Program-made: the position numbers and the translations under genes | Shown: positions 1 through 31,612 of the stretch, one piece after another | Layout of the letters: every line of letters starts with the position of its first letter | Numbering within the stretch: position 1 is the first letter of the stretch | Notes under the pieces: generated by a model | Seen by the model: the letters and a program-made list of their open reading frames with translations, nothing else | Told to the model about the DNA's origin: nothing | Database searches by the model: none | Source: Terriglobia bacterium | Lineage (GTDB): Bacteria; Acidobacteriota; Terriglobia; Acidiferrales; UBA7541 | Direction of reading: 5' to 3' | NCBI GenBank assembly: GCA_963695545.1 | Contig: OY968796.1 | Span: forward strand, 576,001-640,000 | DNA: 64,000 bases

Positions 1-1244
1 CGCTCGAGGTCGGCGAGCGCGGTTGAGGTGAGTGCGGCACCGCCGGCGGCGAATGCGTCGGATTGGGCCGCGCCGGCGATGGTGGGCGGAAGGTCGCACA
101 CGTCGATGGTTTCGCGGCCGCCGAGCGTGAGCGCGCGAGCGATGCAATTTTCGAGCTCGCGAATGTTTCCGGGCCAATCGTACTGCAAGAGACACTTCAT
201 GGCCGCCGGCGTGACGTGGATGCTTTCGCCCGAAGCGTAGCGCTCGAGAAAACAATGCACGAGCAGCGGAATATCCGAGCGGCGCTCGCGCAGCGACGGC
301 AAGTGGATGGTGACGACGTTCAGACGGAAATAGAGATCTTTGCGGAAAGTGCCCGCCTGATAGGCTGCTTCAAGATCGCGATTGGTGGCCGCGATGATGC
401 GGGCGTTCACGGAAATTTTTTGGTTGCTGCCGACGGGACGAATTTCTTTTTCCTGAAGGGCGCGCAGAAGCTTGGCTTGCATTTCAAGCGGCAATTCGCC
501 GACTTCGTCGAAGAATATGGTGCCGCCCTGCGCAGCCTGAAACAGTCCTGGCTTCGATTTCAGGGCGCCGGTGAACGCGCCCTTTTCGTAGCCGAACAAT
601 TCGCTTTCAATCAGGGTGGGCACGAGCGAGCCGCAATCCACAGCGACGAACGGCATGCGCGCAAGCGGGCCTTGAAAATGAATCGCGCGCGCGACCAACT
701 CTTTGCCTGTGCCGCTTTCGCCGCTGATGAGCGCGGATGTGCGCGCGTCTTTCAAACGCGAAATCATGCGCAGAACATCCTGGATTCGCGCGGAGGTGCC
801 GACGATGCCTTCGAGTTGAGATTTCACATCCACGCGCTCGCGCAGGAATTGGTTCTCGGTTACCAGGCGCACTTTTTCCGCCATGCGCTGCAGGAGTTGG
901 CGCAGATTTTCCACGCGGAACGGCTTCTCGATGTAGTCGTAGGCGCCGAGCTTCATGGCTTCGACGGCGGACTCAATCGATCCATAGCCGGTCATGACCG
1001 CGGTCTCGGTCCGCGGGAGCATGGCCTTGATCTTCGGCAATAATTCGACGCCGGACATATAGGGCAGCTTCAAATCCGTGATGACGATATCCGCCGAGCT
1101 GCTCTCGAGACACGCGAGCGCGGCTTCGCCGCTCTCCGCTTCGAGACAGGAGAGGCCGAGCGATGAACCGACCGTCATGCAAAGACGGCGAATGCTGCGC
1201 TCGTCGTCGACCACCAGAAAGCGGAGTGTGGGTTCGCCGCTCAT
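1..1244 (-). CDS. Sigma54-dependent (NtrC-family) response regulator, REC-AAA+; 3' end runs off the window
   Basis: Not in the ORF track because it is truncated. Manual translation from ATG 1244 gives MSGEPTLRFLVVDDE...DLKLP...GESGTGKE...ESELFGYEKGAFTGA...FFDEVGE...WPGNIREL. The ATG overlaps the kinase TGA (ATGA). Confidence 0.93.
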   Translation of the reverse strand, partial: MSGEPTLRFLVVDDERSIRRLCMTVGSSLGLSCLEAESGEAALACLESSSADIVITDLKLPYMSGVELLPKIKAMLPRTETAVMTGYGSIESAVEAMKLGAYDYIEKPFRVENLRQLLQRMAEKVRLVTENQFLRERVDVKSQLEGIVGTSARIQDVLRMISRLKDARTSALISGESGTGKELVARAIHFQGPLARMPFVAVDCGSLVPTLIESELFGYEKGAFTGALKSKPGLFQAAQGGTIFFDEVGELPLEMQAKLLRALQEKEIRPVGSNQKISVNARIIAATNRDLEAAYQAGTFRKDLYFRLNVVTIHLPSLRERRSDIPLLVHCFLERYASGESIHVTPAAMKCLLQYDWPGNIRELENCIARALTLGGRETIDVCDLPPTIAGAAQSDAFAAGGAALTSTALADLE

Positions 1245-14953: not shown

Positions 14954-16297
14954 TTAGTGCAAGTCCCCTACCTCGAAGTTGAGCGAATCCGTCGAAATTT
15001 GGAATTGATATTTGGCCTGGGCCTGGGCGACTTCGGCTTGCGCTTGGTTCAATTGCGCTTCGCTGAGCTCGACGATTGAGCTCAGGCCGAGATTGTAGCG
15101 GGCCTGCGCAAGCTGCAGCGCCAGATCAGCTTGCTGCTTGAACTGATCGGTGAGGCTCAGATTCTGAAATGCGGTATTCGCCTGGTTATAAGCGACGCGA
15201 ACGTCGCGCGCGACTTCATCCGCGAGTTCGTTCACCTGCTGACCCGCGGCGTCGGCGGCGAATTCTGCTTCGCGATGCCGAGCGGAAAATGCGCGGCCGT
15301 CAAAGATGGGAATCGTGAGATTAAAACCCGCCGCGGCATAGTTGCTCGTCAGCGGATCCTCGCGCACGGGAGTCACACCCGCAACACCGATGGCGGCGAG
15401 AGTCGGATTCCACAGTTCCGCTTCGGCCTTTGCGTATTCTTGCGCCGATTGTTGATGCAAGCGGCTGCTGGCAAGTTCTGGCCGCTGCTGAAAAGCCTCC
15501 GCGATCAAGTCGGCGAGGCTGGCGGCGAATTTTTCAGGCATGGGTTGGTCTTCGAGCACGAAGCTTCGCTCGTCGGAGTACCCGAGTGCGAGCGAGAGAT
15601 CGGCGAAGGCGGATTGAAGGTTGTTTTCGGCTTGCGTAAGAAATAGCTGCGCCTGCGCAAGATTCACGTTTGCGAAACTCACGTCGAGCGAGGATTTCAA
15701 TTGATTCTTCTCGAGCGCGGTGACTTGATTCGCGACGAGTTGACGCGCCGCGACAACTTGTTGTGAGACGCCGAGGACCGCCTGCGCCTCGAGCGCGCGG
15801 AAATAAGCCTCGTCGACCTGAAGGAGCACGTCTTCACGCGTGGCCGCGGCGTTCTGCTGTTGCGATTTGGCTTCGAGATCGGCGGACTTCACCAGGCTGT
15901 GCGTGCGCCCAAAATCGGTGACCAGCTGATTGACTTCGACGCCGCCGGCGAAGCGATCGTACACGGACGGATTGTTCAAGCCGCCGGCGGTGATGCGACT
16001 GTCGCTTTCGGCGTCCACGCCGGTGACGTTGCCGAAAACCTGCGGGAAATATGCGGCGCGCGCTTCGGCTGTTGCTGCGCCGGCCTGTTGCGCGGTGAAT
16101 TGCGCGCCGAGCAGTTGCGGCTGATTGCGCAAGGCGATCGCCTGGGCCTCGGCGAGAGTCAGCGATTGGGGCGCCGCGGGACTTGCGGTTTGATTTGGGG
16201 CTGGCGCGTGCCCGGGAGAGACCGCTTGCGCGAAATCCGGTCGAGGCAGACACGGTAACGAACACACTACGACGACAAGAATAAGAAATCGCTTCAT
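14954..16297 (-). CDS. TolC-family outer membrane efflux protein
   Basis: Signal peptide; LTLAEAQAIALRNQP; two OEP-like repeats; RYNLGLSSIVELSEAQ. Confidence 0.92.
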   Translation of the reverse strand: MKRFLILVVVVCSLPCLPRPDFAQAVSPGHAPAPNQTASPAAPQSLTLAEAQAIALRNQPQLLGAQFTAQQAGAATAEARAAYFPQVFGNVTGVDAESDSRITAGGLNNPSVYDRFAGGVEVNQLVTDFGRTHSLVKSADLEAKSQQQNAAATREDVLLQVDEAYFRALEAQAVLGVSQQVVAARQLVANQVTALEKNQLKSSLDVSFANVNLAQAQLFLTQAENNLQSAFADLSLALGYSDERSFVLEDQPMPEKFAASLADLIAEAFQQRPELASSRLHQQSAQEYAKAEAELWNPTLAAIGVAGVTPVREDPLTSNYAAAGFNLTIPIFDGRAFSARHREAEFAADAAGQQVNELADEVARDVRVAYNQANTAFQNLSLTDQFKQQADLALQLAQARYNLGLSSIVELSEAQLNQAQAEVAQAQAKYQFQISTDSLNFEVGDLH

Positions 16298-16298
16298 T

Positions 16299-19200
16299 TC
16301 AATTCACCTCTTGAGGTTGCGCCGCTTCCTCGCGGCTGTAAACGAGCACGTAGGCAGCCGGCACGACAAAAACGGTGAGCACCACGGACGTGAGCAACCC
16401 GCCGATGATCACGCGTGCCAGCGGAGCGTAAGCTTCGCTGCCTTCTTCGAGTTTCAGCGCCATGGGCACGAGTCCGACGACGGTGGCGAGTGTGGTCATG
16501 AGAATCGGTCGCAGGCGAATTCGGCAGGCATGCGCCACCGCTTCACGCACGCTGCGTCCTTCGGAGCGCAGCGCCTTCGCGAAATCTACGATCAAAATGC
16601 TATTGGAAACCACCATGCCCTGCAGCATGACCACGCCCATCAACGATTGGATGTTTAAGGTTGTGCTGGTAAAGGCCAGTGTGAGCATCACACCGATCAG
16701 GCCGGTAGGAACCGCAAGAATAATCAGGAATGGATCGAGAAACGACGAAAATTGCGCGACGAGAATAAGGTAGACCAGAAGGATTGCCAGCAATAAACCG
16801 AATCCGAAACTGCGGAACGATCTTTGCATGGTCACGATCAACCCTCGTGTGTTGATGCGCAGGTTTGAGGGAAGCTGCGTCGCGGCGATTATTTTCTGCA
16901 CGGCGCTCGCCGGAGCCCCAAGGTCTTCACCGGTCGGCGTCACGTACACGTCGATCGTGCGCTGAAGCTGATAGTGGTCCACTTCCGTCGGCGAGAGAAT
17001 ACGCGAGATATCCGCAACCTCGCCGAGAGCCGTGGGCATTTTCAGGCCGTGCGCCTGCAGCGGCATGGCCTTCAAGTCGTCGATGGACTTCACCTGATTT
17101 TCCGGATACTGCACGGTCACGAAATAGTTGTTTCCGGTTTTCGGATCGACCCAGTAACTCGGCGCAATCATTGCGTCGGAGGTAAGCGCCGTGATCACGT
17201 TGTCCACCACTTCCTGCGGCGAGAGGCCGAGCTCGCTCGCGCGCACGCGATTCACGTCGATCTGCAGTGCGGGATAGTCCATGTCCTGCGGGATAAATAC
17301 ATCGGCCACACCCGGGATGGCGCGGAACTGGCGCGCGAGATTCTGCGCGATATCGTCGGCTTGGTTGAGATCCATACCGCTGATCTGGACGTCGATGGGA
17401 GCAGGCGCGCCCTGATTGAGAACCGCGTCCACCAACCCGCCGGATTGCAGGAACGTGCGCACCTCGGGGACCTCGACGGCAATGCGGCGGCGGACGCGGC
17501 TCATGTATTCAAAGCTGCTCACGCTGTGGCCCTCCTTCAGGCCAACTTCGATGAACGCGGTATGCATCCCGGAGTTCGGCGTGAACAGCGCCGAGAGGTC
17601 GGCCATCAGTCCGATGTTCGAGACCACTGTGTTCAGGTCGTGCGCGGGAACTTCCTCGTGCACGATGTTTTCCACTTGAGCGACGTATTTTTCGGTGTCT
17701 TCGATGCGCGTACCCGTCGGCGCTTTGAGGTTGATCACGAATTGGCCGGCATCGGTTCTCGGAAAAAACGACAACCCAACGAGCGGCGCGAGCGCGAAAC
17801 TCAGCACGAACACCACTGTGAATCCCGCCAGAACAACGCGCGGATGATCCAGCGTCTTCCCGACCCAGTGGTCGTAGTGACCGAGCATGCGCTCGAATTT
17901 CAGGTTGAACCAGCTATGGAAACGCCGCCCCCAGGACACGCTCGCCTGTACCGCGCCTTCGCCATGTTCCTTGATGGCGCGGAGAAACATCGCGCAGTAA
18001 AGCGGCACCACGGAAACCGCCACGAAGTAGGACGCGAACAGGGAAATGACCACTCCCAGCGCGAGGGCCGTAAAAAGATATTTGCTCACCCCGTTAAGAA
18101 GCGTCACCGGGAAAAAGACCACAACCGTGACCAGCGTGATTGCGAGGACCGCAAAGGCAACTTCGTTCGTTCCTTTCTCCGCGGCCACGGCCGGAGCTTC
18201 GCCGAGTTCTACGTGCCGGTAAATGTTTTCGAGCACGACCACGGAATTATCGATCAAGCGCGAAAAGGCCAGTGCCAGGCCACTCAGCACCATGCTGTTG
18301 ATCGTGCCGCCGCCGATGTGCAGCACGAAGAATGCCGCCATCAGAGAGATGGGGACCGAGAGGAAGACGGCAAGCGTGGCGCGAACGCTGCCGAGGAATA
18401 ACAAGATCATCAGCGCCGTGAGTAGAAGGCCGATGCCGCCCTCGTGCATCACGGTCGAAATGGCCTGCTTGACGAAAAGAGATTGATCGAACTCGACGTG
18501 CGTTTTGAGCTGCGAAGGGATGTCGCGGAGAGTTGGGATGGCGTCTTTTATTCCGTTCACCACGGAAATGGTGTTGGTGTCGCCACCTTGCTTGAGAATC
18601 GGAACGTAGACCGAGCGCTGACCGTTAACGCGTACGATGTTGTACTGCAGCGCGGAGCCGTCCACGGCGTGGCCTACGTCGGAAAGGAAGACCGATTGCT
18701 CACCTTCAGTCTTGATCGGCAGTTGATTCAGCGCGGCCGCATCGGGAACTTGCGCGTTGGTATAAATGTTGTAGTCCGTCGAACCGATACGCACGTCGCC
18801 GGCGGGAAGAATCAAATTCGATTGGTCGGTGGCGCGCACAACGTCCATCGGGCTGAGTTCATGGGCCTGGAGCTTTAGCGGATCGACGTAAACCATAATC
18901 TGGCGATAGCGGCCGCCATAGGGAGGCGGAACGGTCGCTCCGGGCACGTTGGCGATTTGATTGCGGATCTGATATTGCAAATAATCGTGGAGCTGCGTTT
19001 CGTCCAGCCCCGGGCCCTCGACGGTGAGCAGACAAACGGGAAGGCTCGAGGCGTCCACTTTCATCACCACCGGCGGAAGCGTGCCCTGCGGAAGCCGCCG
19101 CAGATCGGCCATCGCGAGATTCGAGATTTCGGTCACGTCCGCATTGGCGTCGGTGCCCGGCTGGAAATAAATCTTGATCAGGCTGACGCCGGTCATGGAG

Positions 19201-19442
19201 CGGGATTCCATGTGATCGATGCCGCTGCCGAGTGTGAAAAACCGCTCGAAGGTGTCGGTGATATCGGCTTCAATCTGCTGTGGCGGCATGCCGCTGTAGA
19301 ACGTCGCGACGAGCACCACGGGAATGTTGATGGGCGGGAACATGTCCACCGGCATCTGCACCAGGCTGGTGGTGCCGAGGACGAAGATCAGCAAGCAACA
19401 AACCAGGATGAAATACGGATGGCGGATCGAAAAAATTGGCAT
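16299..19442 (-). CDS. RND efflux permease (AcrB/AcrD/AcrF family)
   Basis: 1047 aa; PVDMFPPINIP, IDNSVVVLENI, RLRPILMTTLATVVGLVPMAL. Confidence 0.95.
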   Translation of the reverse strand: MPIFSIRHPYFILVCCLLIFVLGTTSLVQMPVDMFPPINIPVVLVATFYSGMPPQQIEADITDTFERFFTLGSGIDHMESRSMTGVSLIKIYFQPGTDANADVTEISNLAMADLRRLPQGTLPPVVMKVDASSLPVCLLTVEGPGLDETQLHDYLQYQIRNQIANVPGATVPPPYGGRYRQIMVYVDPLKLQAHELSPMDVVRATDQSNLILPAGDVRIGSTDYNIYTNAQVPDAAALNQLPIKTEGEQSVFLSDVGHAVDGSALQYNIVRVNGQRSVYVPILKQGGDTNTISVVNGIKDAIPTLRDIPSQLKTHVEFDQSLFVKQAISTVMHEGGIGLLLTALMILLFLGSVRATLAVFLSVPISLMAAFFVLHIGGGTINSMVLSGLALAFSRLIDNSVVVLENIYRHVELGEAPAVAAEKGTNEVAFAVLAITLVTVVVFFPVTLLNGVSKYLFTALALGVVISLFASYFVAVSVVPLYCAMFLRAIKEHGEGAVQASVSWGRRFHSWFNLKFERMLGHYDHWVGKTLDHPRVVLAGFTVVFVLSFALAPLVGLSFFPRTDAGQFVINLKAPTGTRIEDTEKYVAQVENIVHEEVPAHDLNTVVSNIGLMADLSALFTPNSGMHTAFIEVGLKEGHSVSSFEYMSRVRRRIAVEVPEVRTFLQSGGLVDAVLNQGAPAPIDVQISGMDLNQADDIAQNLARQFRAIPGVADVFIPQDMDYPALQIDVNRVRASELGLSPQEVVDNVITALTSDAMIAPSYWVDPKTGNNYFVTVQYPENQVKSIDDLKAMPLQAHGLKMPTALGEVADISRILSPTEVDHYQLQRTIDVYVTPTGEDLGAPASAVQKIIAATQLPSNLRINTRGLIVTMQRSFRSFGFGLLLAILLVYLILVAQFSSFLDPFLIILAVPTGLIGVMLTLAFTSTTLNIQSLMGVVMLQGMVVSNSILIVDFAKALRSEGRSVREAVAHACRIRLRPILMTTLATVVGLVPMALKLEEGSEAYAPLARVIIGGLLTSVVLTVFVVPAAYVLVYSREEAAQPQEVN

Positions 19443-19448
19443 GGCCGG

Positions 19449-20678
19449 TTATTCCGATCCGCCCGCCGGCACGATCTTTGGCGACACGAGCTCGCCAGTC
19501 TTGTATTGATCCTGCTCACCCAGGACAACCTCATCGCCTTCGGAAAGACCTGCAACGACTTCAGCTCTGTTGGCAGTTTGAATCCCAAGGGTGACTTCGC
19601 GGCGCTCGATGCGGCCGTCGCCATCCACGATAAGCACGGAGCCTTTATTCTCGCCGGACATGTGGATCGCTTGAAGCGGCGCCGTCAGTGCGTTCTGCTT
19701 TGTGTGCAGCGGAATCACCACGGATACGTACATGCCTGGGAGGAGCGCGTAATCGGGATTGGGCACGTCAACTTCGGTATACATCGTGCGGGTTTGTAAA
19801 TCGATCTGGTCCGAGAAGCGAACGATTTTCGCCTGCAGCACTTTGCCGAGCGTGGTGACATTTATGGTTACGCTCTGGCCGATCTGGACGTCGGGCACGG
19901 CGCGCTCCGGCAGCGGAATCACCAGCCGCAGCAGATTATTTTGCGAGAGATGGCAGAGAGCCAGATCGCCCTTGCTCGACGAAGTGCCCGCAGGCAGCAG
20001 CGCGCCGGTATAGGCGTTGATCGAGGTGATGACGCCGTCGAACGGAGCGGCGATGTGGGTATAGGCGAAAAGCGCCTTGTCTTTCCCGAGCGCAGCTTCG
20101 GTCGATAGCACCGCCTGTTCCGCCGCTGCGAGCGCGTCCTTCGCGCCGGAAACTGCGGCGCTCGCTTCCTGATCCTTGCCTTGCGCAACATCCACGTCTT
20201 GCTGCGCGACCAAGCCGGGCTGAGTTTTCTGCACATCGGCTATGCGCGAGTAGGTGAGGTGAGCGACGGTGTACGCGGATTCGGCGCTATCCAGCTCCTG
20301 GCGGTATCGTTCAAGGTCCTGTTGACTTCGCCGCGCCGTCGCTTCGTCCTGCTCCACCTGCTGCTCGAGCTCGGGGACTTCGAGATCGGCAAGCAACTGG
20401 CCTTGCTTTACGTGTGTGCCCCAATTCACGTACAGCTTGCGGATGTAGCCGGAAACCTTCGCGAAGACATCAATTTCCTGGTAGGGCTGGAATTCGGACG
20501 CGATTTCGAGCGTGTCGGAGATATTCTCCCGGGCCACTTTGACAACTGCCACAGTCGGCGCGGGGTTCTCCTGCTTCGCCGAGCCGCACCCCGCGACGCC
20601 CAACGCGGCGGCGAATAACGATGCGATCGCAGCCGATTTCATTGCGCTTCGACATCGAATGACTTGGATACTCATCAT
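19449..20678 (-). CDS. RND periplasmic adaptor (membrane fusion protein), possible lipoprotein
   Basis: VAGC lipobox-like; AKVSGYIRKLYV, IAAPFDGVI, LLPGMY; start codon uncertain. Confidence 0.92.
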   Translation of the reverse strand: MMSIQVIRCRSAMKSAAIASLFAAALGVAGCGSAKQENPAPTVAVVKVARENISDTLEIASEFQPYQEIDVFAKVSGYIRKLYVNWGTHVKQGQLLADLEVPELEQQVEQDEATARRSQQDLERYRQELDSAESAYTVAHLTYSRIADVQKTQPGLVAQQDVDVAQGKDQEASAAVSGAKDALAAAEQAVLSTEAALGKDKALFAYTHIAAPFDGVITSINAYTGALLPAGTSSSKGDLALCHLSQNNLLRLVIPLPERAVPDVQIGQSVTINVTTLGKVLQAKIVRFSDQIDLQTRTMYTEVDVPNPDYALLPGMYVSVVIPLHTKQNALTAPLQAIHMSGENKGSVLIVDGDGRIERREVTLGIQTANRAEVVAGLSEGDEVVLGEQDQYKTGELVSPKIVPAGGSE

Positions 20679-20684
20679 CAAGCC

Positions 20685-21416
20685 TCAATCCTCTTCGCGC
20701 AGGTGTGAGCCCGCGTAGTGAGAATCCACTTCCTGAACCGCCTTGCGGAACTCCTGCGGCGTGAAATTCGGCGCGCGGCATAGTCCGATCAGCTTCTCCC
20801 GTTGTTGCAAGATTTCATGGGCCACCCCGGGCACGCGATCTGCGATTTCAAGCGGAATTGTCTGCGCACCGTGACGATCGCCATGGATCAGGTCTCCGGG
20901 ACGCACTTGCACGCCACCGACCTCGACAGTGCCGCCGAAATCGAAAACGTGCGCGTAGGCGTGGGATACCGAGACATTTCCGGCAAACATTTGGAAGCCG
21001 GCTGCGTGGACTTGCGGCAGATCGCGTACGGCGCCGTTCGTGGCCACGGCCACACAACCGAGGGCCGCGAGCACATTCGCGTGCACTTCCCCAATGAACG
21101 CGCCCACGCCGGACGGACTATCCATGTCTTCGATGACCACGATCCGAGGCGCGGGAATCGTCAGGATGTGTTCCCACCAGTCAGGTTTGGCGTAGTAGCT
21201 GCGCCCTTCCATCGGCGGATCGGCGCTGCGAATCCGAGCGGTCGTCGCATAACCCACAACGGGCGGGAAATCCTCGAAAATGCAGCGCACGTGTGAATCC
21301 GTAAATCCGGTATTCGGAAGACGGACCTCGAACCTTTCTATCGCGCTGGCCACGACGCACGTGCTGAGACGCCGAAACTGCTCCAGCCGTTCGGGAGACG
21401 GACGGCGAGTGTTCAT
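20685..21416 (-). CDS. RraA / HMG-aldolase family protein
   Basis: VVGYATTA, GAFIGEV, TNGAVRDL, VRPGDLIHGDRHG; AGGAG RBS. Confidence 0.88.
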   Translation of the reverse strand: MNTRRPSPERLEQFRRLSTCVVASAIERFEVRLPNTGFTDSHVRCIFEDFPPVVGYATTARIRSADPPMEGRSYYAKPDWWEHILTIPAPRIVVIEDMDSPSGVGAFIGEVHANVLAALGCVAVATNGAVRDLPQVHAAGFQMFAGNVSVSHAYAHVFDFGGTVEVGGVQVRPGDLIHGDRHGAQTIPLEIADRVPGVAHEILQQREKLIGLCRAPNFTPQEFRKAVQEVDSHYAGSHLREED

Positions 21417-21462
21417 ATGCACTCCTAGCGAAATCGATCCCTGGTTGCAAAAGTTAGATGTC

Positions 21463-21485
21463 AAAAGCGGGACTTTTGGGTCCCG
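21463..21485 (-). terminator. Intrinsic-terminator-like hairpin between the leader ORF and the RraA gene
   Basis: Minus strand reads CGGGAC-CCAAAA-GTCCCG-CTTTT. Confidence 0.5.
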
Positions 21486-22557: not shown

Positions 22558-25500
22558 ATGAAAACGAAAATCAATTTTGGACTTATGCTCGCACTGGCGC
22601 TCACGACGATTGGCGCCACGTTGGCGATGGCGCAACAGATCGACTCGGGAGCCAATATTGCTCCGCCGAGGCTGGAAGGCCCGTGCGACATCTACGCCGC
22701 CGCCGGCGATCCCTGCGTAGCCGCCCACAGCACCACGCGCGCGCTGTACGCCTCCTACACCGGCCCGCTGTACCAGGTCCTGCGCCAGTCGGACGGCAAG
22801 ACCTTGGACATCGGCGTCGTCCAGCCTGTCACGTCGCCAGTCCCGGATGCGGGCGGATACGCCGACGCGGCAGCGCAGGACACATTCTGCGCCAACACGT
22901 ACTGCTGGATCACCACGATTTACGACCAATCGGGCAAGCACAACGACCTGACGCAGGCGCCCCGCGGAGGATTCAGTGGGCCGGCCATGGGCGGGTTTAA
23001 CAACGTCCCGATCGCCGACACGGCGCCGATTACGATTATGGGCCACAAGGTCTACGGCGTCTTCATCGAGCCGGGCATGGGCCTGCGCGAGGACGATGCA
23101 AAGGGCACAGCGGTGGACGACCAAGCGGAGGAGCAGTACTGGGTGGTTAATGGTCAGCACTTCAACTCCGGCTGCTGTTTCGACTACGGCAACGCCGAAA
23201 TCGACAGCCGCGACGACGACAACGGCACTATGGAAACCGCGTACTACGGCGATGCTCCCGTCTGGTATCGAGGGAACCCTCCCGGCCCGTGGATCATGAG
23301 CGACCAGGAGAACAACCTACTGGGCTGCGTGAATCCGGATGGTTCGAAGCTCTGTCTCAGCTTGCCGAGCATTTACTGGAGATATGTGACTGCGATCGCC
23401 AAGGGCGAACCGCACCACTGGACCAGCATGGGCGGCGACGCCCAGCGGGGCGCACTATCGGTGATGTTTGACGGACCGCGCGTGAACGGCACCTACGACC
23501 CGATGCGCAAGCAGGGGGCCATCCTTCTGGGCAACGGGGGCGACAACAGCAACGGCTCGCAGGGCACCTTCTATGAAGGCGCAGTGACGGCCGCGGGCAC
23601 CTTCCCGACGAACGCCACCGACCAGCTTGTGCAGGCCAACGTTGTGGCTGCCAAGTATGGCGCGCAGCGGCTGAGCATAGCGCCCGCGTCGGCAACTGCA
23701 ACTCCGCCGGGACTTCAGACGTTCACGCCGGGCTCTTCGCAGGACACTACCGTGACGTTCACCAATACCACGGACGCGCCCGCGACAGGCGTCAAGTTGA
23801 GCGTTGCAGTGCCCAACAAAAACTGGACCGCCTTTGTTTCGGGCACGACCGAGACGTCGAACACGTTCGTTGACCCGGTGGCGCCGGGCGCGAGCGTGAG
23901 CGCGACCTTCAAGGTGACCTCGGGGTCGGCGGCCTTCAACGGCGACCTGGTTGGCAACGCCTGGTGGACGAACTCGACGAACGGCGAAAAGCAATCGGAG
24001 ACAACGGCCGAGAAGGTGCGGAACGTGAGCCCGATCGAGATCAACGAGTTCCGCATCGGCTCCGGTCCCACCAACTCCACGGATTCGTTTATCGAGCTCT
24101 ACAACGCCGGCTCGAGTGACGTCGATCTCTCCAACTGGTCGCTGACCGAGCACCCGACCCAGCAGCCCATCTTCACGACGGTGAAGATCCCAGCGGGGAC
24201 CAGGCTCGCGGCTCGCGGCTTTTATCTGCTCGGGCTCTCCAACTCCGGGCTGACGGTGACGGCGCGCGCGGGCGATAGAACCATCAACGTGAGGAGTACG
24301 ACCGGCATGACAGCCGGCGATACGATCGTCATCGATACCGGCTCCAACGTGGAGATCCGCAAGATCGTGAGCGTTGGGACGGCGGCCAGCAGCAATACGA
24401 CGGGGTGGCAGCCCCTTCCTGACGGTCCAGTGATCACGATTCCCGCCGGCTCGACCAACGTGCCAGTCGCGAGCGTATCCGGCTTCGAGGTCGGCGAAAA
24501 GATCGCCCTCGGCTACGGCGCCACCTACCCGCCCGTCGCAAGAGACACAGAGCGGTACGAGGTGGCGACTGTGACCGCGGTTGGTAAGTCGGGCACGCAA
24601 GCCTACCTAGGTGCGGACGCGCCTGCTGGCTCGACCAACATCAAAGTGACGTCAGTCGCCAACATCTCAGCCGGTGACAAGATCAGATTGGATATCGACA
24701 GCGTCGGCCATGGGATCGAGACGGTCACGGTTGCGAGCGTGGGTACGCAGGCGAGCCACACGAATCTTTCGGCCAACGCGAGCGCCGGCGCGACGAACAT
24801 CAAAGTCCGCAACGTGAACGGTTTTGACGTGGGCGACAAAATCACGGTTGGCACGCCCGCGAACAAGGAAGCAATGACCATAAGAGCCGTCGGGACGCCG
24901 GGTCCGAACGGCAGCGGATTTGCCTTTACGCCGGCCCTCGCCCAGGCGCATATCAACGGTGAGGGGGTCGTCGATCCGGGCACGGGCCTCGACCTGACCG
25001 CGCCGCTCAAGTTCAACCATGCGGCCAACCTGCCCTTCAGCGATCGAGGAACGGGGATCAGCTTTGAGGCGGCGACGGCATTCGCCCACTCGAGCAACGA
25101 GCCCGTGCAGGCGCTCGGCACGGGCGTCACTCTCGACAAACCACTGGTGAACGACCACGCGATCAACGCTGTTGTGCGCGATGCCGCGGTGACGACCGCG
25201 GGCTACCAAGGAACGCCGCCGCCTAACCAGTGGTTCGGAGGTCCCGAGCTCTCAAGCAGCGCCATCAGCTTCGGCTTCACCGTCTCCCTCAAGGCGGGCA
25301 GCATGGTGTTACGTGACGCCGCTGGAATGGTTGTTGACAGTCTCAACTACGGCGGCCTCGTCGACCCATGGGCTGCCGAGGGTTACCAAGCCACCTCGGG
25401 AACAGAACAGAGTGGCTGCTACGTGCCAGCGCCCAGCCCGGCCGGACGCCTCGGGCCGGGCACTTCGGCCGCAGGCGCGACCAACAGGAGCGCGGGCCGC

Positions 25501-26025
25501 TTCCCGGACGGCGTGGAAACCGACAGCAACTGCACCGATTTCCGGGTGCAGGCCGCCACGAGCCTTCCGGCCGGTTCAGTCGCCGGCGCGAATAAAATCA
25601 AAGTCGCCAGCGTGGCAGGCTTCGTCGCGGGCCAGACGATCATGATTGACACAGGCGAGAACCTCGAGACCGCCGTTATCTCGGCGGTTGGCACGGCGGG
25701 CGTCACCACGGTGGGCGCTGCGACCGGCGTGGGTACGACCGTTATTCCTGTCGCCAATGTGATCGGTTTTAGCGAAGGCCAGACCATCACAATTGACAGT
25801 GGCGCGAACTCTGAGACGGCGGTTATCGCCTCCATCACGAGGTTCGGCGGCACCACAATCACCGTTACCGCGCCACTTACTCTTGCGCACGCGATCGGTG
25901 CGCAGGTGTCCGGTACCGGCATCACACTCACCGCTGCATTGACCAAGGATCATGCCGGTGGAACGCAAGTCACCGACAACGTTCCCACGCCCGGTGCTCC
26001 CAACCACTACAGCAGACCTCAATGA
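22558..26025 (+). CDS. Secreted multidomain GH54 alpha-L-arabinofuranosidase B-like protein (GH54, Ig-like, lamin-tail domain, repeats)
   Basis: GPCDIYAAAGDPCVAAHSTTRALY, IYDQSG, CCFDYGNAE, GTME, MRKQGAILLGNGGDNS, GTFYEG; LTD start IEINE...FIELYN...VDLSNW. Confidence 0.9.
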   Translation: MKTKINFGLMLALALTTIGATLAMAQQIDSGANIAPPRLEGPCDIYAAAGDPCVAAHSTTRALYASYTGPLYQVLRQSDGKTLDIGVVQPVTSPVPDAGGYADAAAQDTFCANTYCWITTIYDQSGKHNDLTQAPRGGFSGPAMGGFNNVPIADTAPITIMGHKVYGVFIEPGMGLREDDAKGTAVDDQAEEQYWVVNGQHFNSGCCFDYGNAEIDSRDDDNGTMETAYYGDAPVWYRGNPPGPWIMSDQENNLLGCVNPDGSKLCLSLPSIYWRYVTAIAKGEPHHWTSMGGDAQRGALSVMFDGPRVNGTYDPMRKQGAILLGNGGDNSNGSQGTFYEGAVTAAGTFPTNATDQLVQANVVAAKYGAQRLSIAPASATATPPGLQTFTPGSSQDTTVTFTNTTDAPATGVKLSVAVPNKNWTAFVSGTTETSNTFVDPVAPGASVSATFKVTSGSAAFNGDLVGNAWWTNSTNGEKQSETTAEKVRNVSPIEINEFRIGSGPTNSTDSFIELYNAGSSDVDLSNWSLTEHPTQQPIFTTVKIPAGTRLAARGFYLLGLSNSGLTVTARAGDRTINVRSTTGMTAGDTIVIDTGSNVEIRKIVSVGTAASSNTTGWQPLPDGPVITIPAGSTNVPVASVSGFEVGEKIALGYGATYPPVARDTERYEVATVTAVGKSGTQAYLGADAPAGSTNIKVTSVANISAGDKIRLDIDSVGHGIETVTVASVGTQASHTNLSANASAGATNIKVRNVNGFDVGDKITVGTPANKEAMTIRAVGTPGPNGSGFAFTPALAQAHINGEGVVDPGTGLDLTAPLKFNHAANLPFSDRGTGISFEAATAFAHSSNEPVQALGTGVTLDKPLVNDHAINAVVRDAAVTTAGYQGTPPPNQWFGGPELSSSAISFGFTVSLKAGSMVLRDAAGMVVDSLNYGGLVDPWAAEGYQATSGTEQSGCYVPAPSPAGRLGPGTSAAGATNRSAGRFPDGVETDSNCTDFRVQAATSLPAGSVAGANKIKVASVAGFVAGQTIMIDTGENLETAVISAVGTAGVTTVGAATGVGTTVIPVANVIGFSEGQTITIDSGANSETAVIASITRFGGTTITVTAPLTLAHAIGAQVSGTGITLTAALTKDHAGGTQVTDNVPTPGAPNHYSRPQ

Positions 26026-26437: not shown

Positions 26438-26514
26438 TGGCGCGCCCGGAGAGATTCGAACTCCCGACCCTCTGGTTCGAAGCCAGATGCTCTATCCAGC
26501 TGAGCTACGGGCGC
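26438..26514 (-). tRNA. tRNA-Arg (anticodon UCG)
   Basis: GCGCCCGTAGCTCAGCTGGATAGAGCATCTGGCTTCGAACCAGAGGGTCGGGAGTTCGAATCTCTCCGGGCGCGCCA; 77 nt cloverleaf with encoded CCA. Confidence 0.96.
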
Positions 26515-26876
26515 GAAGCATCCAATCTACATCAAGCCGGGCGGTGCGGCCGAGAATAATTTCCCCGGCTCCGGCCGCAATGTCCCAGCCGTGCCCCGCG
26601 CCAAGTTCCCACGCGCATCCGCCAAATCTCGTCGAGCAACCTGCCTTCCAACGACCGTCGGCCCGAATTTGTCCGCCTTCGCTCTCTGTGTTAGGCTCTC
26701 ACCGGGGTGGTACCAAGCAGGACCGAGCCCAGTCCGGCGGCGCTCCCCGCGTCGTGGATTTGTCTTTCGAGCCGCCTTTCGAGCACGACTTCGAGAGCTC
26801 GGTGAAGTCTCCCCGGACGCGCACTTAGCCTATGCGCGGCCATCGCGACGGCCGAAGGGACACGGGTCCTCACAAC

Positions 26877-27746
26877 ATGGTGCAGAAGGAAGCCACAAGC
26901 CGCATCCGCGAAATCAAGCTGGCGCATTCGCCGGATTCCGACGACGCCTTCATGTTCTACGGCTTGGCGACCCACAAAGTCCTCACGCCCGGGCTGCAAT
27001 TCAAGCACGTGCTCGCCGACATCGAAACGCTGAATCAGGCAGCCGACCAGGAAATCTACGACGTCACGGCCATCAGCTTCGCGGCCTACGCGCATTTGCG
27101 CGACAAATACGTGCTTCTCGATTGCGGCGCGAGTTTCGGCGAAGGCTACGGCCCGATCGTAGTGGCTTCGCACCCGTTGAAGCGGGAAGATCTCGCCGGC
27201 GTGCGCGTCGGCGTGCCGGGGCTGCGCACCACGGCGTATCTGGCGCTGAAACTTTACGAGCCGCGCGTCGTCCCCGTGGTGATTCCGTTCGACAAGATTC
27301 TTGACGCCGTGCGCAATTCCACCGTGGACGCCGGCCTGCTGATCCACGAAGGCCAATTGATGTTCTCGCAGCTCGGTCTTCACCGCGTGGTGGAGCTGGG
27401 CCAGTGGTGGATGGAGCTGACCGGGATGCCTTTGCCGCTCGGCGGAAATGCCGTGCGCCGCGCGCTCGGACCCAAGATCGGCCGGCAAATCGCCACGGCC
27501 ATCCGCCAAAGCGTGGCATTTTCGCTCGACCACCGCGAAGCCGCGCTCAATTACGCCATGCAATTCGCGCGCGACATGGACCCGGAGCTGGCCGACAAAT
27601 TTGTCGGCATGTACGTGAACAAGTGGACACTCGGCTACGGCGAGCGCGGCCGTGGCGCAGTCCGCGAATTGCTTGCCCGCGGAGTGGCAGCCGGCCTTGT
27701 GCCGCCTCCGGCCGACGCTGAATTTCTCAGCGAGGCCGAGTCTTAG
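26877..27746 (+). CDS. mqnD: 1,4-dihydroxy-6-naphthoate synthase (futalosine menaquinone pathway; MqnA/MqnD family)
   Basis: LAHSPDSDDAFMFY, DIETLN, GEGYGP, TTAYL, LIHEGQL, PLPLG, YVN. Confidence 0.85.
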   Translation: MVQKEATSRIREIKLAHSPDSDDAFMFYGLATHKVLTPGLQFKHVLADIETLNQAADQEIYDVTAISFAAYAHLRDKYVLLDCGASFGEGYGPIVVASHPLKREDLAGVRVGVPGLRTTAYLALKLYEPRVVPVVIPFDKILDAVRNSTVDAGLLIHEGQLMFSQLGLHRVVELGQWWMELTGMPLPLGGNAVRRALGPKIGRQIATAIRQSVAFSLDHREAALNYAMQFARDMDPELADKFVGMYVNKWTLGYGERGRGAVRELLARGVAAGLVPPPADAEFLSEAES

Positions 27747-28045: not shown

Positions 28046-31000
28046 ATGAGAAACCTCACACAAATCGGCAGCGAACTGCGTGAGTTGATGGCCCAGCGCA
28101 TCCTGATACTCGATGGCGCCATGGGCACGATGCTGCAGCGCGCGCATCTCACGGCCGCCGATTTCGGCGGGCCAAAACTTGAAGGCTGCTTCGAGCTCTT
28201 GGTCGCGAGCCGGCCCGACGTGATATCCGGAATCCATCGCAAATATCTCGAAGCCGGCGTCGATATCATCGAGACCGATTCGTTCGGCAGCACGTCGATC
28301 GTGCTCGGAGAATATGGCCAGGAGAAACGCGCCTACGAATTGAGCCGCGCTGCGGCGGAGCTCGCGCGCCGCGCAGCCGACGAATTCTCTTCCCCCGCCA
28401 AGCCGCGTTTCGTTGCCGGCGCGATGGGCCCCACCACCAAAGCCATCAGCGTCACCGGCGGCGTCACCTTCGACGAATTGCGCGACGCATATCACGAACA
28501 GGCGCGCGGCCTGATCGATGGCGGCGCGGATCTGCTGCTGCTCGAAACCTGCCAGGACACGCGCAACATCAAGGCCGGCGCTCTGGCGATCGATCGCCTC
28601 GCGCGCGAAGTCGGCCACGTGATTCCGCTGATCATCTCGGCGACGATCGAGCCCATGGGCACCATGCTCGCCGGGCAAGATGTCGAGGCGCTTTGGGCCT
28701 CGCTCGAACATTTGCGTCTGCTGGCCGTGGGCCTGAATTGCGGCACTGGTCCCGAATTTATGACCGATCACCTGCGCACGCTCGCCGGCCTCGCCACCTG
28801 CGGCGTGTCCTGCTATCCGAATGCGGGCCTGCCGAATGAGGACGGTCTGTACCTCGAGACGCCCACCACGCTCGCCGCGCAGCTCGAAAAATTTGTGCGC
28901 CACGGCTGGCTCAATTTGGTTGGCGGCTGTTGCGGCACAACCGAAGAGCATATGCGCGCGATTGCGCAGATGGCTGCGGGCCAAGCGCCGCGCCGCCTCG
29001 TCGAGTCAGCACATCGCGCCGTATATTCCGGCATCGAATCGATCGAAGCCGAGCCCAGCACGCGCCCCTTGCTCGTCGGCGAGCGCACCAACGTGATCGG
29101 CTCGCGACTGTTCAAGGGACTGGTCGCCACTGAACAATGGGACGAAGCCAGCGAAATTGCGCGGCGCCAGGTGAAAAGCGGGGCGCACATCGTGGACGTC
29201 TGCCTGCAAAGCACCGAGCGCGAAGAGCTCAACGATATCGCGCCGTTCTACGACAAGCTCATCCGCAAAGTGAAAGTGCCGCTGATGATCGATACCACCG
29301 ATGCCAAGGCCATCGAAACGGCGCTGAAGTATTGCCAGGGCAAAAGCCTGATCAATTCGATCAACCTTGAAGATGGCGAGGAGAAATTCCAGCGCGTCGT
29401 GCCGCTCGCGCGATCCTACGGCGCAGCTGTGGTGGTCGGCTGCATCGATGAAGATCCCAAGCAGGCGCAGGCGTTCACGCGCGAGCGCAAATTGGCCGTC
29501 GCCGATCGCTCTTACAAGCTGCTCACGGAGAACTATCAGCTTCCGCCCGAAGATATCATTTTCGATCCGCTGGTTTTTCCGTGCGCCACGGGAGATGAAA
29601 ACTACATCGGCGGCGCTGTCGAAACCATGGAAGGCATTCGCCTGATCAAAGCGAATATTCCGTTCGCACGCACGATTCTGGGCATCTCGAATGTTTCGTT
29701 CGGTCTGCCGGCGGGCGCGCGCGAAATCGTCAATTCGGTTTTCCTGTACCACTGCACCAAAGCCGGCCTCGATCTCGCCATCGTGAATGCCGAGCGCATC
29801 GAGCGCTTCGCTTCGATCCCGGACGCGGAACGCAAGCTGGCGGAAGATCTTTTGTTCAACCCTCCGCCGACGGCTTTTCCCGCGGATCATCCGCAAGCCA
29901 CGCTGTTCCGCGAAGCGCCGGCGGATTGGCGCGAACAAACTCGCGAGCAGAAAATCGCCGTGAATCAATTTCACATCGCGGCCATCGCCGACCATTTCCG
30001 CTCCGCGAAGCGCCGCGAACGCGATGCCGGCGAACAAATTTCGCTCGACGCGCGCCTGGCTCGCTACATCGTCGAAGGCAGCCGCGACGGTTTGGTGGCC
30101 GATCTCGAAAACAAACGCGCCGAAGGCGCGAAGCCGCTTGACATCATCAATGGTCCGCTGATGGCGGGCATGGCCGAAGTAGGCCGCTTGTTCAACGCCA
30201 ACGAGCTGATCGTCGCCGAAGTGCTGCAATCCGCCGAAGCCATGAAGGCGGCCGTCGGCCACCTCGAGCAATTCATGGAATCGAGCGACATGGAAAAGCG
30301 CGCCCGAATTCTGCTCGCGACCGTGAAGGGCGACGTGCACGACATCGGCAAAAATCTCGTCGAAATCGTGTTGAAAAACAACGGCTACGAGGTCATCAAC
30401 CTCGGCATCAAAGTGCCGCCGGAAGATTTGATCCGCGCGTTTCGCGAGCATCATCCGGACGCCATCGGCCTTTCCGGTTTGCTCGTGAAGAGCGCCGAGC
30501 AAATGGCCATCACCGCGACCGACTTGCGCGACGCCGGCATCGAAGTTCCGCTACTGGTCGGCGGAGCCGCGCTCTCGGATAAATTCACGCGCCTAAAAAT
30601 CGCGCCGCGCTACGGCAACGCCGTGTGCTACGCGAAGGACGCCATGAATGGCTTGGATCTGATGAATCAATTGAGCGACGCCGCGCGGCGCGACGCCGTG
30701 CTTCGCGCGCACGCGCCCGGCACCGAAGTCGCGCCAGAGCCCGAACGCCCGGCTGCGGCGATCGGCCCGTCCGAGGAGCGCTCGACTCGCGTTCGCGTTG
30801 ATCTGCCGATTCCCTCCGTCACGTATCTCGATGCCAAAATTCGCGCCGTGCCCGAACTCAAAGAACTCTGGAGCTACGTCAATCCCTACATGCTCTACGG
30901 CCGGCATCTCGGCTTCAAAGGGCAATTCGAGAAGGCGCTCGCCGAGCGCGATCCGCAAGCGCGCGAACTTTACGAAAACGTAGAAGAGGTGAAGCTCGCG

Positions 31001-31612
31001 GCGGAGAAATTCCTGAAAGTCCGCGCCGTATGGCAATTCTTCGAGGCCGAGCGCGATGGCAACGCGATTCATTTGTTCGCCGCGGGGTCGGACACACCGC
31101 TGCACACCTTCCATTTCCCGCGTCAGCGCGTGCCCGATGGCCTCTGCCTGAGCGACTACATTTTGCCGCGCGCGGCCGCCGCGCGCGATCACCTGGCGCT
31201 TTTCGTCGTCACCGCCGGCGAAGGCATTCGCGATCGCGCCGAAGAAAGCAAGCGCGAAGGCCGCTATTTTTATTCGCACGCGCTGCAAGCGCTCGCCATC
31301 GAATCGGCGGAAGCCTGCGCCGAATGGCTGCATCGCCGCATCCGCGAAGATTGGGGTTTCCCCGATCCGCCCGCGATGACCATGCCCGAACGCTTCACCG
31401 CGAAGTATCGCGGCAAGCGCTACAGTTTCGGTTATCCCGCGTGCCCGAATTTGGACGATCAAGCCGGCATCTGGCAACTGCTCTTGCCGGAGCGCATCGG
31501 CGTGCGCCTCACCGAAGGCTTCATGATGGACCCCGAGGCGAGCGTCAGCGCGCTCGTCTTTCAGCACCCGGATTGCACATATTTTTCGGCCGTCGATCCA
31601 GCTCAAAGCTGA
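28046..31612 (+). CDS. metH: Cobalamin-dependent methionine synthase
   Basis: DGAMGTML, GLNC, GGCCG, GERTN, DVHDIGKN, RYSFGYPACP. Confidence 0.97.
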   Translation: MRNLTQIGSELRELMAQRILILDGAMGTMLQRAHLTAADFGGPKLEGCFELLVASRPDVISGIHRKYLEAGVDIIETDSFGSTSIVLGEYGQEKRAYELSRAAAELARRAADEFSSPAKPRFVAGAMGPTTKAISVTGGVTFDELRDAYHEQARGLIDGGADLLLLETCQDTRNIKAGALAIDRLAREVGHVIPLIISATIEPMGTMLAGQDVEALWASLEHLRLLAVGLNCGTGPEFMTDHLRTLAGLATCGVSCYPNAGLPNEDGLYLETPTTLAAQLEKFVRHGWLNLVGGCCGTTEEHMRAIAQMAAGQAPRRLVESAHRAVYSGIESIEAEPSTRPLLVGERTNVIGSRLFKGLVATEQWDEASEIARRQVKSGAHIVDVCLQSTEREELNDIAPFYDKLIRKVKVPLMIDTTDAKAIETALKYCQGKSLINSINLEDGEEKFQRVVPLARSYGAAVVVGCIDEDPKQAQAFTRERKLAVADRSYKLLTENYQLPPEDIIFDPLVFPCATGDENYIGGAVETMEGIRLIKANIPFARTILGISNVSFGLPAGAREIVNSVFLYHCTKAGLDLAIVNAERIERFASIPDAERKLAEDLLFNPPPTAFPADHPQATLFREAPADWREQTREQKIAVNQFHIAAIADHFRSAKRRERDAGEQISLDARLARYIVEGSRDGLVADLENKRAEGAKPLDIINGPLMAGMAEVGRLFNANELIVAEVLQSAEAMKAAVGHLEQFMESSDMEKRARILLATVKGDVHDIGKNLVEIVLKNNGYEVINLGIKVPPEDLIRAFREHHPDAIGLSGLLVKSAEQMAITATDLRDAGIEVPLLVGGAALSDKFTRLKIAPRYGNAVCYAKDAMNGLDLMNQLSDAARRDAVLRAHAPGTEVAPEPERPAAAIGPSEERSTRVRVDLPIPSVTYLDAKIRAVPELKELWSYVNPYMLYGRHLGFKGQFEKALAERDPQARELYENVEEVKLAAEKFLKVRAVWQFFEAERDGNAIHLFAAGSDTPLHTFHFPRQRVPDGLCLSDYILPRAAAARDHLALFVVTAGEGIRDRAEESKREGRYFYSHALQALAIESAEACAEWLHRRIREDWGFPDPPAMTMPERFTAKYRGKRYSFGYPACPNLDDQAGIWQLLLPERIGVRLTEGFMMDPEASVSALVFQHPDCTYFSAVDPAQS

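Follow-up and report, generated by a model that had tools for sequence, protein, structure and literature searches.

How a long protein arm can be assembled from many copies of one small domain is the question raised by a GH54 gene of a Terriglobia bacterium (Acidobacteriota). The gene is an open reading frame (ORF) of 1155 amino acids (aa) at 22558-26025 on the + strand of a 64,000-nucleotide (nt) stretch of contig OY968796.1, here called the window, to which all coordinates refer. To our knowledge, nearly all multidomain arms are built as beads on a string. An earlier reading of the window, made from the sequence alone, had proposed that the C-terminal repeats of this protein are nested, each being inserted into a loop of the previous one within a split lamin-tail domain (LTD). 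It is confirmed here that the gene product is a secreted enzyme with a signal peptide, a GH54 domain, a NEW3 domain and an LTD split by two nests, one four and one two units deep. In particular, models, natural variants and covariation establish with near certainty that the halves (N and C) of the repeated unit, a small barrel, are paired in the nested order N1N2N3N4-C4C3C2C1. Each barrel is split at the hairpin between strands 4 and 5, where the next one is inserted. The outgoing chain therefore supplies strands 1-4 of barrels 1, 2, 3 and 4 in turn, the returning chain adds strands 5-6 to barrels 4, 3, 2 and 1, and the LTD closes around them.

Repeat halves and insertion sites

The LTD is recognised from aa 490 by PF00932 (43.8 bits against a cutoff of 34.3) and is then interrupted, as the sequence-only reading had noticed. 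Four N halves follow, with AG motifs at 24268, 24445, 24625 and 24784, about 6 nt after the approximate positions first given, and then four C halves, whose motifs stand precisely where they had been placed (24910, 24979, 25048 and 25117) at an exact period of 23 aa. In the GH54 protein, the N halves score 57-78 bits and the C halves 27-34 bits with hidden Markov models (HMMs) built from them, while the refined half HMMs reach at most 4.9 bits (N) and 1.2 bits (C) on shuffled sequences; thus, the repeats are not due to chance. The order L1 NNNN CCCC L2 L3 NN CC L4 is found in 121 of 121 entries, which are the query with its database entry and 119 close homologs of 73-80% identity, and the identical layout in these homologs rules out an assembly artefact. 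The enzyme family accounts for 4371 matches among the 8000 candidates scored.

At the first site, the insertion is evident from homolog P0180, which has an uninterrupted LTD covering positions 5-107 of the 109 of the PF00932 profile, its second part directly following the first. The resumption of the LTD had been placed at about 25297; the motif GSMVLRD lies exactly there, but the host chain already resumes upstream, at about aa 876 (nt 25183). The C-terminal recurrence of the pattern, two N halves and then two C halves, was correctly read and spans 25555-25974. It is here shown to be an insertion as well, located between an RFPDG..DF motif and a terminal TPG..N motif. Indeed, the gap from DF to TPG..N measures 5-9 aa in the empty-site homologs P0136 and P0161 versus 148-152 aa in filled homologs.

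Pairing of the halves

Residues 486-1155 were folded by AlphaFold with a 149-row alignment, which gave a mean predicted local distance difference test (pLDDT) score of 73.4. The repeats mostly lie at 80-96, as do the blocks of all C halves, while the values are 44-75 for the LTD and under 50 for its extension. Over 4..449 of the model, 108 of the 118 residues of lamin B1 can be aligned (Z 10.3, root-mean-square deviation (rmsd) 3.0), lamin A/C reaches Z 11.2, and lamin Ig domains align 103-109 residues across 3/4..449 (7dtg_A and 3gef_A: 108/118). Since the first LTD part has only 72 residues, the alignment of about 108 lamin residues indicates that the LTD closes around nest 1, and a complete Ig-like LTD is predicted to form from the two separated parts, at modest pLDDT. 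Of the fold that the sequence-only reading had predicted, the joining of the LTD halves and the single N4-C4 barrel appear in the model, while N1-C1, N2-C2 and N3-C3 of the query are not individually resolved. The pairing of these outer barrels is supported by deletion variants and covariation, and is seen directly only in the model of a homolog.

As for the natural variants, P0124, P0130, P0136 and P0139 lack both N4 and C4, and their N3 runs straight into C3. The pairing is also marked by a Gly/acid rule. In the nested register, an acidic residue at C-half position 18 always faces a Gly at N-half position 32 (27/65 versus 0/156 for outer pairs), while a shift of +1 gives 9/62 versus 18/159 and the parallel order 5/60 versus 22/161; these counts come from 57 pure nests of non-GH54 hosts and, the sequences being related, overstate independence. 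The GH54 protein itself obeys the rule, with Gly/Glu in N2-C2 and N4-C4 and Asp/non-acidic residues in the other four pairs. Glu38-His14c and Asp32-Ala18c are the top couplings between halves in the nested register, also when the innermost pairs are left out, and are lost on shifting, the second of them giving the cleaner signal. In the GH54 protein, the conserved Glu-His pair includes E599-H867, E668-H844 and E721-H821. Mutual information on the 149-row family alignment, whose effective depth is 72, gave noise only. Moreover, similarities among N halves correlate with those among C halves in the nested register (rho 0.375), the corresponding values being -0.13 in parallel order, 0.19 with a shift of +1 and at most 0.17 in 200 random pairings. 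As the N-N similarities mirror the C-C ones in this register, growth by whole N+C pairs is supported.

The outer barrels become visible in a GH78-like homolog with a 5-deep nest (L089:3918-5606), modelled at pLDDT 87.3. Single barrels of 71-76 residues align over 5..551, 58..528, 159..481 and 209..456 of this model, ranges that correspond to N1..C1, N2..C2, N4..C4 and a tip barrel around a CBM67-like domain. Unequal numbers of N and C halves in homologs had been named beforehand as a finding that would contradict nesting. After removal of five GH54 fragments, the set comprises 83 non-GH54 hosts of at least 400 aa, and in 64 of them the HMM matches form balanced bracket strings. In a larger set of 88 hosts, the counts are equal in 67, whereas permutations gave 16.9 on average and never more than 30. 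Of the 19 unbalanced hosts, 12 balance on inspection by eye when a divergent half is counted and five are truncated or frameshifted, leaving P0232 and P0326; balance by eye thus extends to 76 of 78 intact proteins.

Apart from the relatedness behind the Gly/acid counts, some observations tell against the nested topology. P0232 is a real exception, with 7 N and 8 C halves, and P0326 is a possible second one. The means of the top-10 couplings separate the registers modestly (3.62 versus 3.26-3.36 for the shifts), and one of 40 random pairings reached 4.35 for the Glu-His coupling. The fold searches did not individually display the outer barrels of the query, the aligner preferring contiguous ones, and confidence in the query LTD is low (pLDDT blocks of 44-75). 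An arrangement without nesting, with N- and C-type repeats either kept apart in two regions or paired in parallel, draws on two of these points, the outer barrels that are not individually aligned in the model of the GH54 protein and the unbalanced P0232. It is nevertheless strongly disfavoured and hardly credible in view of the LTD rejoining, the joint loss of N4 and C4, the Gly/acid register, the GH78-like model, the similarity correlation and the balanced counts, all of which agree with N1N2N3N4-C4C3C2C1.

Host enzyme and domain layout

The PF09206 match of the catalytic domain spans aa 42-367 with 405.8 bits against a cutoff of 25 and covers profile positions 1-314 of 315 (Table 1). The fungal GH54 enzyme AkAbfB (1wd3/6sxt) aligns to the protein over aa 41-376 (E ~1e-98), and E226, D329 and C206-C207 align with its motifs; of the 111 full-length family entries, 110-111 retain these residues. 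We take the catalytic roles in GH54 to be those of nucleophile E221 and acid/base D297. Judged by these residues, the catalytic motifs are intact and arabinofuranosidase activity is predicted; according to Table 1 of PMC8155123, one fungal GH54 enzyme favoured other p-nitrophenyl (pNP) substrates.

The query shares catalytic domain and motifs with AkAbfB, while NEW3, the split LTD and the nests replace AbfB/CBM42. Indeed, as the sequence-only reading had remarked, CBM42 is not seen: PF05270 has no match at E<=1 in the GH54 protein, although it does match the homologs P0139 and P0177. A bacterial GH54 architecture given as 'ArabFuran-catal, RICIN, LTD, NPCBM_assoc, RPT1', in a group that includes Acidobacteria (PMC8155123), is probably that of the query's family or of a close one. 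Where that paper's text treats the architecture, the repeat is simply labelled RPT1, with no mention of its fold, of nesting or of a split LTD. Promoter and terminator scans stayed at chance level.

Table 1. Features of the GH54 gene, with positions in the window
Feature	Position	Strand	Basis
Predicted Sec signal peptide, aa 1-25	22558..22632	+	Basic start, hydrophobic segment and A-M-A cleavage motif, recognised in the sequence
GH54 alpha-L-arabinofuranosidase B catalytic domain, aa 41-367, C206-C207/E226/D329	22678..23658	+	PF09206 E 1.4e-121
NEW3 / NPCBM-associated Ig-like region	23671..24024	+	PF10633 match aa 390-463, 31.6 bits vs cutoff 24.4; boundaries approximate
LTD first part, aa 490-561	24025..24240	+	PF00932; meets second part in model
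N1, strands 1-4 of barrel 1	24241..24390	+	Half-HMM match
N2, strands 1-4 of barrel 2; conserved aromatic loops W617, Y653, Y657, Y667	24391..24594	+	Half-HMM match
N3, strands 1-4 of barrel 3	24595..24753	+	Half-HMM; fused directly to C3 in P0124, P0130, P0136, P0139
N4+C4, contiguous innermost barrel 4, tip of nest 1	24754..24975	+	Model residues 246-322 match 9n71_B, 7w1c_A
C3, strands 5-6 of barrel 3	24976..25044	+	Motif and half-HMM
C2, strands 5-6 of barrel 2	25045..25113	+	Half-HMM; Glu facing Gly of N2
C1, strands 5-6 of barrel 1	25114..25182	+	Motif and half-HMM
Second LTD part, with its last strands at ~aa 900-934, plus C-terminal extension as far as second insertion site	25183..25554	+	Lamin alignment across model 4..449; extension pLDDT < 50
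N5, strands 1-4 of barrel 5	25555..25701	+	Half-HMM match
N6+C6, contiguous innermost barrel 6, tip of nest 2	25702..25908	+	Model residues 559-636 match six-stranded barrels, e.g. 4ru4_B
C5, strands 5-6 of barrel 5	25909..25974	+	Motif and half-HMM
Terminal TPG..N motif closing LTD extension, and stop codon	25975..26025	+	Adjoins DF motif in empty-site homologs P0136, P0161

The barrel unit and its relatives

In the model, the N4C4 and N6C6 units are six-stranded beta-barrels of about 70 residues, and the DSSP strings assign strands 1-4 to the N half and strands 5-6 to the C half, with the split at the strand 4-5 hairpin. The best structural match of N4C4 is 9n71_B, an inserted barrel of the Mystique phage tail tube (Z 12.1, rmsd 1.4, 72 residues aligned, 25% identity), followed by the K1-lyase rider 7w1c_A (Z 11.0), while N6C6 matches the tailspike domain 4ru4_B (Z 10.5, rmsd 1.8). 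Further matches include capsid I-domains, alpha-1,3-galactosidase inserts, and EF-Tu domain II and ATPase N-terminal barrels, the last two at Z 7-8.3. The fold class of the unit is presumably the RIFT barrel group. By sequence, a profile of ten units ranks 9n71 first in the PDB (E 0.02), and 5 of the 10 units find a match in PHROG 1082, a tail assembly protein (best E 2.4e-5), which hints at a kinship of the unit with phage tail accessory barrels.

Neither Pfam nor NCBIfam has a model that covers the barrel unit. PF24149 (K1-lyase Rider) gives 19.5 bits on nest 1 against a cutoff of 27, with single units at best at E 0.0044, and homolog P0122 reaches 28 only as a whole-protein sum. FliMN_C (PF01052) passes the Pfam cutoff only by summing partial N-half matches (profile 5-45 of 73), and TIGR02480, the NCBIfam FliN model, scores 20.3 on the GH54 protein against a cutoff of 84. 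A FliN/FliM annotation of the nest is therefore treated as a probable misannotation by partial motifs, since the barrels of the model match another fold. The module accounts for an unannotated part of 450 residues in a very large enzyme family of soil Acidobacteriota, now labelled, probably wrongly, with a flagellar FliN domain.

Other searches were less informative. A PDB sequence search with aa 486-1155 returned weak lamin matches only (best E 0.073), and no PDB structure reached E<=0.001 in a Foldseek search with the model of the nest tail. Against viral models, Foldseek gave 80 matches at this threshold, but those listed have query template modelling (TM) scores of 0.07-0.15 and are uninformative on nesting. 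A tblastn search of nest 2 against phage records had no match and IMG/VR gave one marginal locus, close viral copies thus not being found with the nest 2 and IMG/VR queries used. The best ESM Atlas matches are clusters without a name (0.94 with a single unit, 0.87 with the nest) and serve as leads only.

Comparison with known inserted domains

The principle of recursive insertion is already published. Indeed, Si3 of the cyanobacterial RNA polymerase beta' subunit is reported to consist of recursively inserted SBHM/HABAS domains, six levels deep (PMC13114784, PMC11515920, PMC10895346). Both Si3 and the nest insert a small domain into its own copies, which gives Si3 an elongated out-and-back arm in a host loop and would do so for the nest. 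However, HABAS is described as a four-stranded open sheet, whereas the nest unit is a closed six-stranded barrel, and Si3 occupies one intracellular locus, whereas the nest module is found in at least eight extracellular enzyme families, where it is mobile, 0 to 9 levels deep, branched and cargo-bearing. In the Foldseek search of the PDB with the model of the whole tail, the single Si3 entry, 8emb_D, had a probability of 0.06 and a TM of 0.06. The nest module appears to be a different domain, one without a Pfam or NCBIfam model, and no paper describing it or its nesting was found in the open-access literature. A 2026 survey of 48,551 insertion events highlights six levels (PMC13114784), a number exceeded by the nest depth of up to 9.

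Single barrels of like fold, also inserted into their hosts, occur in phages and glycosidases. They comprise 9n71, 7w1c (PF24149), 2m5s (the P22 I-domain), the tailspikes 4ru4 and 6e0v, and the alpha-1,3-galactosidases 8yk3 and 9i4f, with Z 7.6-12.1 and rmsd 1.4-3.1. Unlike the nest units, each of them is one contiguous chain range that is not split around its own copies, and the sequence link is weak.

Distribution, depth and cargo

The best 80 genome loci for the nest region are 79 Acidobacteriota and one Binatia, and the complete 4+2 pattern lies in one ORF at 70 of them. No gene neighbour is conserved among the 80 loci, the largest unrelated cluster comprising 8, and an operon or system reading was rejected on this ground. 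In locus L079, the GH54 gene of that locus is followed directly by a gene for a second nest-bearing protein of 1022 aa with 3+3 and 2+2 (L079:6861-9929).

None of the 40 relatives of this genome that were searched (completeness 59-100%) yielded the nest region. A tRNA-Arg(TCG) lies at 26438-26514 (-), 410 nt from the GH54 gene. In the same-genus genome G004, the similarity to the window stops at this tRNA-Arg, and the next ~15.8 kb have no match; the gene looks like part of a variable region beside the tRNA 3' end. Collectively, the absence in the relatives and the synteny break suggest that the GH54 gene was gained horizontally.

The hosts of the module include GH2, GH3, GH20, GH27, GH35, GH78, Sde182-like and unclassified proteins, at least eight enzyme families, and extend to named Actinomycetota; in P0227 and P0228, the nest splits the Pfam match of the catalytic domain. 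Depth ranges from 0 to 9 overall and from 2 to 9 among the 64 balanced hosts, and one GH78-like insertion site holds depths of 0, 1, 3 or 5. The 6- to 9-deep nest hosts P0272, P0281, P0298, P0301, P0345 and P0360 have no Pfam match at E<=0.01. Halves that follow a bracket rule, together with natural depths of 0-9 at orthologous sites, provide a ready series for studying the origin of recursive insertion and the folding of nested chains, in which the outermost barrel cannot close before synthesis of the entire nest is complete.

Branched nests occur as well (P0210, P0200, P0284). Besides the strand 4-5 hairpin, three further loops of the barrel, recognised by eye, take up self-insertions, which makes four in all. 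A second bracket type, also recognised by eye, consists of stacks of first strands with later barrels lacking strand 1, that is, self-insertion at the strand 1-2 hairpin. It is present in P0198 (aa ~120-560, with 4 extra first strands and 4 barrels without strand 1), P0228 (aa 424-797), P0284 (aa 503-955) and P0200. Insertion after strand 2 and between strands 3 and 4 was likewise seen by eye in P0273/P0279 (aa ~474-600) and P0173 (aa 1-100).

Nests can also carry cargo, a CBM67-like or LamG domain, in GH78-like and GH27/GH54 homologs. In GH78-like hosts, a CBM67-like domain at the nest tip matches 6kbj (E 4e-27) and 3w5m (E 4e-19) by sequence, and SaRha78A 3w5n (Z 22.9) and the Pleurotus lectin 6kbj (Z 20.8) by structure. 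In P0293 (L089:3918-5606) and related GH78-like proteins, it lies within the strand 1-2 hairpin of the innermost barrel of the 5-deep nest. A LamG domain (Laminin_G_3) occupies the strand 4-5 loop of the nest in P0139 (aa 539-778) and P0232 (aa 552-773), and P0232 appears as if it had lost one N half at this insertion.

Putative role and evolution

A nest begins and ends at one point and would thereby fit a surface loop of almost any host. As a two-chain out-and-back stalk, it would act as a spacer that holds a surface or a cargo domain at a distance from the enzyme's catalytic part, helping an extracellular glycosidase to reach or hold its polysaccharide. We judge this spacer and presentation role, with the shape it implies, to be somewhat probable, and the module suggests a loop-insertable spacer for enzyme engineering. 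Predicted TM scores of 0.54 and 0.61 limit what the models say about the shape of the stalk. In the GH54 family, where the tips are bare, the aromatic loops of barrels 2 and 3 would provide a contact surface. Within the tail, these barrels are the most conserved part (82-91% in N2, N3, C3 and C2 versus 62-74% in N1, N4, C4 and C1) and they carry the family-conserved aromatic loops with W617, Y653, Y657 and Y667; with the tips bare, these features make such a surface on barrels 2-3 likely.

Two points count against the spacer role. The bare tips of the GH54 nests are not explained by pure presentation, and empty-site homologs are common and sit next to filled paralogs in the same loci (L090, L091, L098, L128), so that the arm is dispensable in these lineages. 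The conservation of barrels 2-3 with their aromatic residues could also mean that the barrels, nested as described, are a new family of multivalent carbohydrate-binding modules that replaces CBM42. This would fit with hosts that are nearly all glycosidases or carbohydrate-associated proteins, and with the structurally similar K1-lyase rider, which contributes to polysaccharide binding according to PMC8822698. However, generic barrels elsewhere are rich in Ala, Gly, Thr and Val and mostly without exposed aromatics, the hosts act on very different sugars, and in several of them the nest already bears a separate, dedicated CBM67-like or LamG domain, making this binding role unlikely.

The fold matches open a further possibility, in which the nested arms act as protein-protein clamps and serve the oligomerisation or stability of the enzyme or its attachment to the cell surface. 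Indeed, the best matches are phage accessory barrels, the K1 rider is described as stabilising the trimer and the P22 I-domain as crucial in capsid folding and assembly (PMC8822698), and depth is fixed at 4+2 in all 121 close family entries. Such a clamp is nevertheless quite improbable, as a spacer better fits depths that vary from 0 to 5 at one GH78-like site and up to 9 elsewhere.

Patchy presence, empty-site paralogs and insertion at four of its own loops would also be expected of a neutral or selfish element, a barrel with adjacent termini that is tolerated in surface loops and spreads by recombination without benefit. The 4+2 pattern is, however, kept across many Acidobacteriota lineages, as seen at the 70 of 80 loci, barrels 2-3 are better conserved than the LTD parts, and the in-gene barrel copies are 25-50% identical in their N halves and hence old; purely neutral spread is very unlikely. 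Returning to the spacer stalk, a broader account is tentative: a phage-tail-related barrel may have become a mobile, self-nesting cassette that enters loops of unrelated secreted glycosidases and, by balanced-bracket self-insertion at four loops, forms a length-tunable arm between catalytic and glycan-binding parts.

Changes in depth would add or remove whole N+C pairs, one conceivable route being out-of-register double recombination between nests. As a single tandem duplication cannot deepen a nest, the candidate mechanisms of growth are such a double recombination and two duplications with an unbalanced, P0232-like intermediate.

Other genes of the window

Read from their translations, the neighbouring genes include a predicted outer-membrane-factor/RND/membrane-fusion efflux operon at 14954-21464 (-) with an RraA-like gene ahead of it. 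The gene at 26832-27746 (+), probably of the MqnD type in menaquinone synthesis, is conserved in 4 of 5 same-genus genomes, and 28046-31612 (+) probably encodes a B12-dependent methionine synthase.

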